A stretch of DNA of 64,000 nucleotides from Alphaproteobacteria bacterium. Its GTDB lineage: Bacteria; Pseudomonadota; Alphaproteobacteria; UBA828. The notes under the pieces were generated by a model, which was not told where the DNA came from, did no database searches, and was given only the letters and a program-made list of their open reading frames with translations. The stretch covers positions 288,559-352,558 of the forward strand of contig OY763937.1 in assembly GCA_963667705.1 (NCBI GenBank). The letters are read 5' to 3'. The position numbers were made by a program, and so were the translations under genes. Of this stretch, positions 56,254 to 58,931 are shown in pieces (within the stretch, counting starts at the first letter, position 1; every line of letters begins with the position of its first letter).

Positions 56254-57162
56254 ATGGCGGAGGTATCTTCAGGCGGGCGCGATCTCGTGGGCTACGGCGC
56301 GAACCCACCGGCAATCCCATGGCCGGGCGGAGCGCGGCTCGCAGTCTCGGTGGTGGTCAACTACGAGGAAGGCTCGGAGTATTCGCACGCCATGGGCGAT
56401 GCGCACCAGGAAGGGCTCACCGAGTTCGGCAGCTACTCGCTGCCCGAGGTCTACCGCAACCTCGCCATGGAATCGATGTTCGAGTACGGCTCCCGCGCCG
56501 GTGTCTGGCGTATCCTGCGCCTCTTCGAGGAGACCGGGATCACGTCCACCTTCTATGCCTGCGCCGTCGCCTTCGAGCAGAACCCGGAGGTCGCCCGCGC
56601 GGTTGTCGCCGGCGGCCACGAGGTGTGCAGCCACGGCTGGCGCTGGGAAGAGGTGTTCCGCCTCTCGCGGGAGGAGGAGCGCGAGCACATGCGGCTCGCC
56701 ATCGAATCCTTCGAGCGCACCTGCGGCAAGCGGCCGGTGGGCTGGTACTGCCGCTTCGGCCCCTCGGTCCACACCCGCGAGCTGGTGGTGGACGAAGGGG
56801 GCTTCATCTACGATTCCGACGCCTACAACGACGACCTGCCCTACTTCGTCGAGGTCTCGGGCAAGCGCCATCTGGTGGTGCCCTATACGTGCGATATCAA
56901 CGACTTCTCTTTCTGGACGGCGCCCGGCTTCCTCACCGCCGAACACTTCTATCAGTACGCGCGGGACAGCTTCGACACGCTCTACGCCGAATCCGCGACC
57001 TGCCCGAAGATGATGTCGATCGGGCTGCACGCCCGCATGATCGGCCGCCCGGGCCGGATCGGAGGACTGGCCCGCTTCATCGAGCACGCGCAAGGACACG
57101 AGGGCGTCTGGTTCGCGACGCGGGAGGAGATCGCCCGCCACTGGCTCGCCGCGGCAGGGTAG
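56254..57162 (+). CDS. Polysaccharide deacetylase family protein (PuuE-like)
   Basis: RDLVGYG, WPGGARLAV...NYEEG, EYGSRAG, SHGWRW, MMSIGLH..IGRPGR. Confidence 0.87.
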   Translation: MAEVSSGGRDLVGYGANPPAIPWPGGARLAVSVVVNYEEGSEYSHAMGDAHQEGLTEFGSYSLPEVYRNLAMESMFEYGSRAGVWRILRLFEETGITSTFYACAVAFEQNPEVARAVVAGGHEVCSHGWRWEEVFRLSREEEREHMRLAIESFERTCGKRPVGWYCRFGPSVHTRELVVDEGGFIYDSDAYNDDLPYFVEVSGKRHLVVPYTCDINDFSFWTAPGFLTAEHFYQYARDSFDTLYAESATCPKMMSIGLHARMIGRPGRIGGLARFIEHAQGHEGVWFATREEIARHWLAAAG

Positions 57163-57223
57163 TGCGCGTCCGTCTATGGTGGACGCGCGACGGGCGAGCG
57201 CAAGTTGATAGTTTACGAAATAA

Positions 57224-57436
57224 TATCAATATGTTGCGTGAAATTGGGTTCGTTTTGCAAAAGCGCTGCGCCGGCGCGAGAGCGGCGGGCCGCGGCGGCG
57301 ACCCGTGCCCTTTCCGCCGAGAAGGGACCCGCGCCGGCGCGGCACGCGACGGCGAGCCAAAGGCGACCGGGCGTGTGCGCGTTCCTCCATGTTATTCAAT
57401 GAAACAAATGGGTTATGCGAAATTGGCTTCGTTTTG
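57224..57436. repeat. Direct repeat GAAATTGG(G/C)TTCGTTTTG, each copy preceded by an IHF-like site
   Basis: Copies at 57240-57257 and 57419-57436 (17 of 18 identical); TATCAATATGTTG at 57224-57236 matches WATCAANNNNTTR exactly. Confidence 0.85.
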
Positions 57437-57791
57437 AAATTTCCTCTCTTCGGCATCGCTCCCTCGATCCGCAGCGCGCGCCGCGGCGGCGGCTGGTGTC
57501 GCGCAGGACGCACCCGCCGATTCGGTCCGCGCGCCGCGGGTCGGCCCGGATCGGCCCCGGACCGGATCGAGGCGGGAGTCCCTGGGCCGGGGCGCCGCTC
57601 GACCGGAGAGCGCCCGCTCGTCCACCATGCTGCCGCCCGGTCGCTTCTCCACCGCATGGCGCGACTCTGGCCCCGGCGCCGCGCACCGTGCACCGCACCA
57701 TGGTCCGGCTATCCTGTCGGCCGGACAGCGCCGCGCAAACCATGACCCTGGTGAGACATGCGGGCTAAAGCGGAAACGCCCAAGCCCCCCG

Positions 57792-58931
57792 TCACTTCGC
57801 CAGCAGGTGGCGGGCGACGATGAGGCGCATGATCTCGTTGGTGCCTTCGAGGATCTGGTGCACGCGCAGGTCGCGCAGGTGGCGCTCGATGGGGAAGTCC
57901 ATCAGGTAGCCGTAGCCGCCCAGCAGCTGCAGCGCCTGGTTGCAGACCTCGAAGCCCGTGTCGGTGGCGAAGCGCTTGGCCATGGCGGTCGCCGCGGTGG
58001 CGTCGGCGCCGTCCGCGTCCAGCGTCGCCGCGGCGCGTCGGATCAGCAGGCGGGCCGCCTCCAGGTTCGTCGCCATGTCGGCGAGCCTGAACTGCAGTGC
58101 CTGGAACTCCGCCAGCTTGCGGCCGAACTGCTCGCGCTGCAGCAGGTGGTCGCGGGCGATCTCCAGGCTCGCCTGGGCCGCGCCGATGGAACACGCGCCG
58201 ATGTTGATGCGCCCGCCGTCGAGCCCCGTCATGGCGATCCTGAAGCCCTGGCCTTCGGCACCGATCAGGTTCTCCGCCGGCACGCGGCAGTCCTCGAAGG
58301 TCACCATGGCGGTGGGCTGGCTGTGCCAGCCGAGCTTTTTCTCCTGCGCGCCGAAGCCGAGCCCCGGTGCATCGCGCTCCACCGCGATGCACGAGATGCC
58401 GTCGGCGCCCTGCCCGCCGGTCCGCACCATGCAGACATAGATGTCGGCATGGCCGCCGCCGGAGATGAAGGCCTTGGTGCCGTTCAGCACGTAGTGCTCG
58501 CCGTCAAGCCGCGCGCTGGTGCGGAGCGAGGCGGCGTCGGAGCCCGAGCCCGGCTCGGTGAGGCAGTAGGCCGCGAAGTGTTCCATGCTAGCGAGCTGGG
58601 GCAGGAAGCGGCGGCGCTGCGCGTCCGCGCCGAAACAGTCGATCATCCAGGACGCCATGTTGTGGATGGAGATGTAGGCGGCGGTCGACGCGCAGCCCCG
58701 CGCCAGCCCTTCGAAGATCAGCGCGGCGTCCAGCCGCGTCAGGTTCGAGCCGCCGACATCGTCGCGCACGCAGATGCCGCCGAAGCCGAGCGCTGCGGCC
58801 TGGCGCAGCGCATCGATGGGGAAGGTGCAGTCGCGGTCCCACGCTGCGGCATGGGGCGCGAGCTCGTTCTCGGCGAAGTCCTGCGCGAGCGCGCGGAACG
58901 CCTCCTGCTCTTCCGAGAGGGTGAAGTCCAT
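57792..58931 (-). CDS. Acyl-CoA dehydrogenase (isobutyryl-CoA dehydrogenase-like)
   Basis: [41 protein letters not shown]. Confidence 0.92.

Follow-up and report, generated by a model that had tools for sequence, protein, structure and literature searches.

In a 64,000-nucleotide stretch of contig OY763937.1 (positions 288,559 to 352,558; hereafter the window) from an alphaproteobacterium of the UBA828 lineage, two convergent genes are separated by a gap of 629 bp (57163-57791) that holds two AT-rich islands. We found that these islands belong to a dispersed family of short extragenic units, and that the core of the units also accompanies the genes of a large protein family represented by P0001. 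The descriptive part of this account, comprising the dispersed family, the composite repeat in the gap as a deletion derivative of a gene-bearing unit, and the linkage between gene and motif, is one in which we have high confidence. We further propose that units and gene form a partnership resembling that of repetitive extragenic palindromes (REPs) and REP-associated tyrosine transposases (RAYTs), with a new protein in the place of the transposase. Taken as a whole, we judge this proposal to be evenly poised between holding and failing.

The gap is bordered on the left by a polysaccharide-deacetylase-family gene (PF01522) on the plus strand, which ends at 57162, and on the right by an acyl-CoA dehydrogenase gene on the minus strand, which ends at 57792. 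A repeat search identified in it two 42-nt units that are 74% alike and lie 179 bp apart. Both contain the 16-mer AATTGG(G/C)TTCGTTTTG on the plus strand, as AATTGGGTTCGTTTTG at 57242-57257 and as AATTGGCTTCGTTTTG at 57421-57436. No third match is present in the window, even with up to 3 mismatches; 0.08 matches are expected in a shuffled window, and two or more were obtained in 0 of 100 shuffles. The pairing of the two islands through a shared 16-mer, made in the initial annotation, is thereby borne out. Unit A (57205-57262, plus strand) consists of an A/T tract, a 13-mer of the integration host factor (IHF) type, GCGTG and the core GAAATTGGGTTCGTTTTGCAA, with the minus strand of its 16-mer reading CAAAACGAACCCAATT. 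Unit B (57384-57445, plus strand) consists of an IHF-type 13-mer, GCG and the core GAAATTGGCTTCGTTTTGAAATTTC, and its arms GAAATT and AATTTC are able to pair. Measured against the consensus WATCAANNNNTTR, as given in the initial annotation, the plus-strand IHF-type site of unit A (TATCAATATGTTG, 57224-57236) is an exact match, and that of unit B (AACAAATGGGTTA, 57403-57415) departs from it at 2 positions. In each unit 5 nt separate the end of the site from AATTGG, the equal spacing that had been described.

The two GC-rich inverted-repeat pairs reported earlier are also present. The first, I2, occupies the spacer between the units (57265-57343, arms 57265-57278/57330-57343), and the second, I9, spans 57462-57572, with 10-nt arms (57462-57471/57563-57572) that lie 91 nt apart. 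They are 2 of the 9 inverted-repeat pairs in a very GC-rich stretch, and taken alone the GC-rich inverted repeats of the gap are weak evidence; across the 11 composite copies described below, I9 shows one compensatory change and two disruptions. Their assignment to each unit did not hold, as they are confined to the composites of this species and do not occur in the widespread module.

The window's own genome (G000; one contig, 4.15 Mb, 69.7% GC) contains 54 copies of the motif, counted as the 16-mer with up to 2 mismatches, compared with 1 for the reversed pattern used as a control. This count, together with the shuffle result, leads us to reject a chance local duplication, and the dispersed site family that the initial annotation had suggested looking for is real. 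Over ~75 nt, the 54 copies yield a consensus with an AATT tract, ~15 variable A/T-rich bases, AtCAa...GTTAyGcGAAATTGGGTTCGTTTTGCAAtTTC and then T-runs. They fall into three classes: 22 copies in the 11 composites, 8 GC-richer copies in a ~950-bp repeat, and 24 gene-less units distributed over 19 loci whose flanks are unique. Searched with a profile of the AT-rich copies, G000 returns these 46 again at E <= 8.5e-9. Only 5 further hits appear, all of them weak (E about 1e-3 or worse); 4 are gene-type copies and the fifth lies at 3359315, so there is no tail of decayed copies. Three gene-less units stand in direct order within 400 bp at G000:C1:952619-953019, in a ~2-kb stretch without a confident gene call.

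The IHF-type consensus occurs at one offset in the 46 AT-rich copies, where 8 are exact, 21 have one mismatch and 14 have two (43 of 46 with at most two), and no other offset collects more than 4. Twenty copies from the congeners G018 and G011 follow the same pattern, with 6 exact matches, 7 with one mismatch and 4 with two (17 of 20). An AATT tract is conserved ~20 nt upstream of the site, and G000 encodes an IHF alpha subunit (131 bits, above the NCBIfam cut-off). The site is absent in the samples from Pirellulales, Zixibacteria, Ignavibacteriales and genome G043 (0 exact). Because it is missing from these four other lineages, the IHF-type site is an add-on of this lineage that lies outside the universal core; the proposed linkage at a fixed distance stands within the genus and does not extend to the other lineages sampled.

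An IHF-type site beside letters of the form TGGC ... TTGCA also recalls a sigma-54 promoter with an upstream IHF site, in which TTGG(G/C)TTCGTTTTGCA would resemble the -24/-12 elements. In sigma-54 promoters the separation of GG and GC is generally taken to be invariant at 10 nt. Here the two dinucleotides lie 9 nt apart, and GA or CG replaces GC in unit B and in many other copies; moreover, the IHF-type site is only 5 nt away, and the majority of copies are directed towards the 3' end of a convergent gene. We rejected this candidate on spacing and give it next to no weight. No sigma-70-like promoter was found in the gap.

The composite in the window spans 57179-57711 on the plus strand (533 bp) and is one of 11 copies in G000. 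A BLAST search of the gap against its own genome returned the 10 further copies at 85-92% identity, and all 11 align end to end: unit A is followed by the spacer, unit B, a GC-rich part of ~270 nt and a terminus common to the gene-bearing unit. Three spacer-length variants exist, the spacer between units A and B being deleted in 3 copies and extended in 4. In a genus-wide DNA search only G000 gave matches, with none in the 20 congeners. The shared terminus (57671-57711, minus strand) corresponds to the 5' end of the ~950-bp gene-bearing unit (33/38 identical, E 6e-7). Read on the minus strand, the composite starts with this 38-nt terminus and continues with motif regions that are colinear with the motif region of the ~950-bp repeat, to which unit A (46/63 identical) is closer than unit B. 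The terminus contains the palindrome CCGCACCATGGT (inverted repeat I6), which in congener G018 also precedes the gene start by ~60 nt. Since the terminus is shared and the motif region colinear, the composite is an internally deleted, non-autonomous relative of the gene-bearing unit. At the place in G018 and G011 (L176, L185) that is orthologous to another G000 composite (G000:C1:3125436-3126024), there is a single unit that is like unit B beyond the core, and the far flank of this place maps elsewhere in G000. This single copy suggests that composites may be able to build on older single units.

The surroundings of the composites are themselves rich in repeats. In G000 the composites are embedded among nests of other REP-like repeats, and GC-rich hairpin repeats of the type GCGCGTGGACGCGCGAC (57176-57198 in the window) occur at the left ends of most of them, often several consecutively. 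A separate dispersed repeat of 55 bp (57713-57767) adjoins the composite of the window and lies outside it; ~10 copies are found in G000, and many at 90-96% identity in every congener listed. Beside a gene-bearing unit (locus L003) lies a ~110-bp GC-rich repeat (G000:C1:88352-88460) with more than 50 BLAST matches in the genome. The deacetylase-family and acyl-CoA dehydrogenase genes that flank the gap (56254-58931 in the window) are adjacent only in G000; they are ~18-20 kb apart in G005 and G009 and far apart elsewhere. This places the composite at the junction of a rearrangement or a deletion. No motif was found near the orthologous flanking genes at 19 loci fetched from congeners.

The ~950-bp unit is present in 8 copies in G000, three of which translate identically, and encodes P0001, a protein of 273 aa. 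Each of the 12 gene loci in the genus carries a single motif, which lies on the coding strand 664-790 nt downstream of the first matched codon; none has a motif on the opposite strand. This linkage extends to several phyla, in which family genes carry the reverse-complemented motif at the 3' end or just upstream. In alphaproteobacterial relatives it is read in frame as ..LQNEANS.. near the C-terminus. An Ignavibacteriales gene has it 25 nt after the stop codon. The Zixibacteria have it as QNEPNS in a frameshifted open reading frame (ORF), and in them a degenerate copy follows a second gene past its stop codon. At a Pirellulales contig end, the C-terminal helix is followed by the motif, and the gene on a Planctomyces plasmid has two degenerate copies in its 3' part. 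One subfamily (7 loci) carries the motif ~15-20 nt before the ATG. Among 33 loci of other lineages, a coding-strand motif is present in 10 and an opposite-strand motif in 0; the 20 weakest relatives lack it altogether.

At the protein level, 31 of the best 150 family representatives have motif-encoded peptides in their C-terminal part, compared with 1 of 150 in a reversed-sequence control. These peptides span three frames (18, 18 and 3 occurrences), and the motif is therefore kept at the nucleotide level. The minus strand of the gap itself encodes LLQNEPNF, AFAKRTQFH, KTNPIS, KTKPIS and FQNEANFA. The peptides KRTQF, QNEAN and TKPI, linked in the initial annotation to the ends of dubious ORFs, are actual read-throughs of the motif in three frames, and the peptides of the gap are also found in the C-terminal parts of members of a real protein family. 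A small ORF starting from the ATG in GTTATGCG was rejected, as ACG, GCG or an in-frame TGA stands at this point in many copies. The codons of the family's conserved N-terminal peptide ..KQIEANR.. resemble the reverse-complemented motif in four loci (L223, L241, L243 and L244); in L223 and L241 they differ from the 14-nt core by no more than 1 mismatch. The C-terminal ..LQNEANS.AQT.. likewise looks like a weak echo of the N-terminal ..QIEANRRNAQ.STGP... This resemblance could be fortuitous, could mark an operator within the start of the gene itself, or could show where the motif came from.

The protein family is very large, unannotated and unstudied. P0001 and its relatives have no match in Pfam or NCBIfam and only noise in PADLOC and PHROGs, and a sequence search of the PDB with P0001 gave 0 matches. 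A word-indexed protein search yielded 493 relatives among the 8,000 candidates scored, and a profile search of 1.84 billion representatives retrieved 40,731 clusters at E <= 0.001, of which 24,830 remain at E <= 1e-10. In the ESM Atlas only unnamed clusters match the family. The annotations seen for relatives read 'hypothetical protein' only, and this holds for all 5 tblastn matches in a plasmid collection, where the gap DNA had no blastn match. Literature word searches returned no paper on the conserved peptides of the family or on the motif peptides, and for the motif and its 12-mers all of the matches listed were unrelated. The AlphaFold model, calculated from a 42-sequence alignment, is confident, with a predicted local distance difference test (pLDDT) score of 88, and all-helical. 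Two short N-terminal helices surround an invariant N..N...STGP.....K.....N...HG segment and are followed by long helical hairpins.

Gene and motif also co-occur across genomes. Within the genus, the motif is present in 15 and the gene in 11 of the 20 other genomes. Motif hits number 4-53 in the 12 gene-carrying genomes, among them G000, and 0, 0, 0, 0, 0, 1, 1, 2 and 4 in the 9 that lack the gene. A co-occurring protein family, as had been sought, is thus found in that of P0001, which is also the candidate for the 'unknown protein' partner postulated earlier: its genes carry the motif and their presence tracks the copy number, and the binding itself is what we infer. Ten of the 12 gene-carrying genomes have one copy of the gene, the exceptions being G000 with 8 matches and G003 with 3, and its 5' flank is homologous to that of G018 in 7 of the 11 loci compared. 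Based on this synteny and the single-copy state, the gene behaves as a resident that has undergone expansion in G000.

Beyond the genus, multiple copies of the motif are present in one metagenome-assembled genome (MAG) each from Ignavibacteriales (20 copies), Zixibacteria (12), Pseudomonadota (27) and Pirellulales (92), with controls of 0-1. By comparison, none of 300 evenly drawn Pseudomonadota genomes of at least 90% completeness exceeds 2 hits, a level not above that of the control. When one genome per species was scanned, at least 119 motif loci were recorded, in a collection for which chance alone was estimated to give roughly a thousand hits; the cross-phylum evidence therefore lies in the multi-copy genomes and the shared flanks and not in the raw list. 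These flanks comprise GTTAC.GCG before the 16-mer and a T-rich stretch after it, beyond which each lineage adds flanks of its own. The 16-mer is the same across phyla over a GC content of 0.36 to 0.70, a constancy that is uncommon among extragenic repeats. Planctomycetota have arrays of the 10-nt sub-unit GGGTTCGTTT, in both direct and inverted orientation and with helical spacing, an arrangement that looks like protein-binding DNA. The Pirellulales MAG (L190, L195, L200, L205, L210, L215) has tandem GGGTTCGTTT before the motif and TTGATTGATTGA after it, the latter giving stop codons in all three frames. Six loci of the Zixibacteria MAG (L194, L199, L204, L209, L214, L219) all have TTATCCACA, which we take to be the DnaA-box consensus, ~60 nt before the 16-mer; it is not seen in the other lineages.

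To describe turnover of the units, we used 20 motif sites fetched from G018 and G011, of which six places are orthologous to motif-bearing sites in G000. At these six, in an ungapped alignment, the core is 78% identical (245/315), a value biased upward by the choice of sites that have the 16-mer, and the flanks are 36% and 44% identical; genes of the species compared are 84-90% identical. The comparison of filled and empty sites that had been proposed could be made at two places, which are filled in G011 (one also in G018) and empty in G000, with 85-110 bp of extra DNA and no visible target duplication.

Placement was assessed on home-made gene calls. The 19 gene-less loci comprise 10 between convergent genes, 5 in tandem contexts with the motif strand opposite to the genes, 1 in a tandem context on the same strand, 2 divergent and 1 complex; for the 11 composites, the corresponding numbers are 7, 1, 1, 2 and 0. 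Convergent placement at 17 of 30 loci exceeds the share of such gaps by number (14%) and by length (18%), with p about 1e-7 and 2e-6, in a comparison in which the repeats themselves lengthen gaps. The Zixibacteria loci are likewise mostly convergent. The sites are spread evenly round the chromosome; when it is halved by a weak skew profile, their orientations are 10+/9- in one half and 8+/11- in the other. A replication-fork trap or an IS200-like lagging-strand bias was rejected, as orientation shows no link to replichore.

Several of these observations would also suit a DNA site that serves the host without ongoing mobility. The family protein would then be a sequence-specific DNA-binding factor, acting as a nucleoid organiser, a transcription roadblock between convergent genes or an autoregulator, with the units as its regulon and IHF as its architectural partner. 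Such a role agrees with a gene that is single-copy, syntenic in most congeners and equipped with a site of its own, with a core conserved at six orthologous intergenic sites amid diverged flanks, with the lack of decayed copies, and with the enrichment of loci between convergent genes. However, a site of at least 30 nt cannot recur by point mutation, so some copying process must have spread the copies. The 8 gene units (three identical in protein) and 11 composites of G000, the lack of composites in 20 congeners, and the sites that are filled or empty between species also speak for copying, while the even chromosomal spread and absence of replichore bias argue against macrodomain or fork-trap roles. 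We consider this explanation unlikely, though it deserves to be kept in view.

A second possibility is that the gene-less units are inert relics, the leftover ends of decayed gene-bearing copies with no function. The composite is demonstrably a deletion derivative, and gaps between convergent genes are where neutral insertions survive. Relics should, however, form a gradient of decay, and none emerged in the profile search. In addition, the core is kept at orthologous sites across species with genes that are only 84-90% identical, the gene-less units carry an AT-rich IHF-type module that is absent from the in-gene copy, and the 16-mer is constant across phyla that differ widely in GC content. 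Inert relics are thus a very improbable explanation.

We also considered whether the motif acts as RNA. In this case transcripts of the upstream gene, the family's own mRNA included, would carry the reverse-complemented motif in their 3' untranslated end, where it could terminate or stabilise them or be bound by an RNA-binding protein, perhaps that of the family. The strand of the motif gives this idea its appeal: it is always the coding strand in genes of the family, 15 of the 19 gene-less loci have the motif 3' of a gene on the same strand, often 20-50 nt past the stop, and tandem-gene contexts favour that strand 5 to 1. Furthermore, the gap lacks a canonical intrinsic terminator, a search for a GC-rich stem with a T-run having found 0 terminator-like sites in 57000-57900, and in the other orientation many copies show a weak hairpin (GAAATTG / CAATTTC) followed by T-runs. 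This hairpin is, however, missing from unit A and from the Zixibacteria copies. A conserved upstream hairpin was rejected as well: one orthologous site seemed to have compensatory changes, but the fold energy over 43 distinct copies equals that of shuffled sequences (mean -2.1 versus -1.95 kcal/mol).

Comparative evidence points in the same direction. In RNAalifold analyses of the 11 composites on both strands, the covariation term contributes about -3 of about -150 to -160. An Rfam search of window positions 56900-58000 at E <= 10 returned nothing on the units, searches of 20 loci at the gathering score gave 0 matches, and 5 loci searched at E <= 1 gave 1 unrelated match; on this basis a known RNA family is rejected. 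Two loci lie in divergent promoter regions, and the sub-unit arrays of Planctomycetota look more like protein-binding DNA. The repeated non-coding RNA unit offered as an alternative in the initial annotation thus finds no backing in Rfam, fold energy or covariation. We favour a DNA site, and retain an RNA role for the coding-strand reading as an alternative to which we assign the same low probability as to the host-serving site.

Given these considerations, we favour the repeat-plus-gene partnership, which could operate as follows. What occupies the gap is a non-autonomous repeat, derived by internal deletion and related to the ~950-bp P0001-encoding unit. Its AT-rich islands are copies of a ~60-75-bp module, in which the core, about GTTAYGCG-AAATTGG(G/C)TTCGTTTTG-YAA, would act as the cis-acting DNA site of the gene family; the more numerous gene-less copies of this core lie in intergenic DNA, mostly between convergent genes. 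The family protein may recognise the core via its conserved, basic N-terminal ~40 residues, IHF would in this genus bend the DNA that adjoins it, and the resulting protein-DNA complex would copy or maintain the repeats. Three steps of this scheme are inferred: that the protein binds the core, that IHF binds its site, and that the protein mobilises the repeats. We hold the mechanistic claim, in which the family protein binds the core and copies the repeats, only tentatively, at somewhat less than even chances.

A number of observations weigh against this partnership. The composites have no terminal inverted repeats, as judged by comparing the ends of the 11 copies and by the absence of a terminal pair among the 9 inverted repeats. 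No target duplication is visible at the 2 filled/empty pairs or at the composite flanks, in species that are 84-90% identical and at flanks that hold other repeats. Taken together, these two results suggest no known transposition chemistry. All doublets in G000 are direct, whereas those of REPINs are inverted. No nuclease, recombinase or DNA-binding fold was recognisable in the family protein by sequence and structure searches: Foldseek of the model against the PDB gave no match at E <= 0.001 (best E 0.46), and the best wide VIA-align match (Z 8.3) was to helical hairpins and uninformative. The weaker relatives in viral contigs, which make up 20 of the 29 loci, show no motif. G015 has 4 motif copies and no gene at 95% completeness, and G043, a MAG of unknown completeness, has 27 copies and no family gene found by protein or profile query. 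Finally, genomes of one genus are not independent, so that the co-occurrence of gene and motif is suggestive, and the selection of the orthologous sites flatters the conservation of their core.

To place the system among known repeats, we compared it with three groups. Passages of four reports (PMC3116915, PMC3337134, PMC5581495, bioRxiv 10.1101/2022.05.22.493013) describe REP and REPIN sequences as short extragenic repeats whose RAYT partner gene is usually single-copy, vertically inherited and repeat-flanked. The present family shares the tens of short extragenic copies (54 versus 1 for the control), the repeat-flanked, vertically inherited and usually single-copy partner gene whose presence is tracked by the number of repeats, and the long persistence of a conserved repeat sequence. 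We base the likeness on a resident gene flanked by its own repeat, a copy number that follows the gene, a persistent core and occasional bursts. The partner differs, as it is not an HUH/Y1 (IS200-like) transposase; it belongs to no Pfam or NCBIfam family and its model is all-helical. The repeat differs as well, being AT-rich in a 70% GC genome, without a GC-rich palindrome and with doublets in direct order. In addition, REPs are generally lineage-specific, whereas the 16-mer described here is the same across phyla.

In bacterial interspersed mosaic elements (BIMEs) and the IHF-binding REP mosaics of enterobacteria, an IHF site lies between two inverted REP hairpins, according to passages of PMC2817692 and PMC3479197. 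The composites resemble them as mosaic extragenic repeats at gene ends with an IHF consensus at a fixed place, here by sequence only. They differ in that the IHF-type site abuts a non-palindromic core, and there is no sequence similarity to the enterobacterial IHF-binding mosaics, which are named RIP and RIB. Miniature inverted-repeat transposable elements (MITEs) include small mobile sequences with IHF sites, as described in part of PMC2229807. Like MITEs, the composites are multi-copy, intergenic and non-autonomous derivatives of a gene-bearing unit by internal deletion; unlike MITEs, of which Correia elements are an example, they show neither terminal inverted repeats nor a visible target-site duplication, and the gene-bearing unit encodes no recognisable transposase. 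The association of a repeat scattered over distantly related bacteria with one very large gene family suggests a repeat-plus-helper-gene partnership of a kind not previously described.

A bolder reading, which is possible but which we think will probably not hold, is that the family represents a second kind of symbiosis of the REPIN/RAYT type, one without an HUH transposase. An all-helical family of at least 40,000 clusters would recognise a nearly invariant site of 16-30 nt, and would copy or maintain populations of this site in intergenic DNA by an unknown chemistry that leaves no inverted repeats and no target duplication. The site would be the same from Alphaproteobacteria to Planctomycetota, Ignavibacteriales and Zixibacteria, with lineage-specific helpers such as IHF bolted on.

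If the proposed partnership is correct, the motif would provide a defined DNA or RNA partner sequence, and with it the first functional handle on an unannotated family of tens of thousands. It would also explain the spurious small ORFs in GC-rich genomes that end in QNEPNF, KRTQF or KTNPI. More generally, persistent partnerships between repeats and genes would not be confined to one transposase fold.

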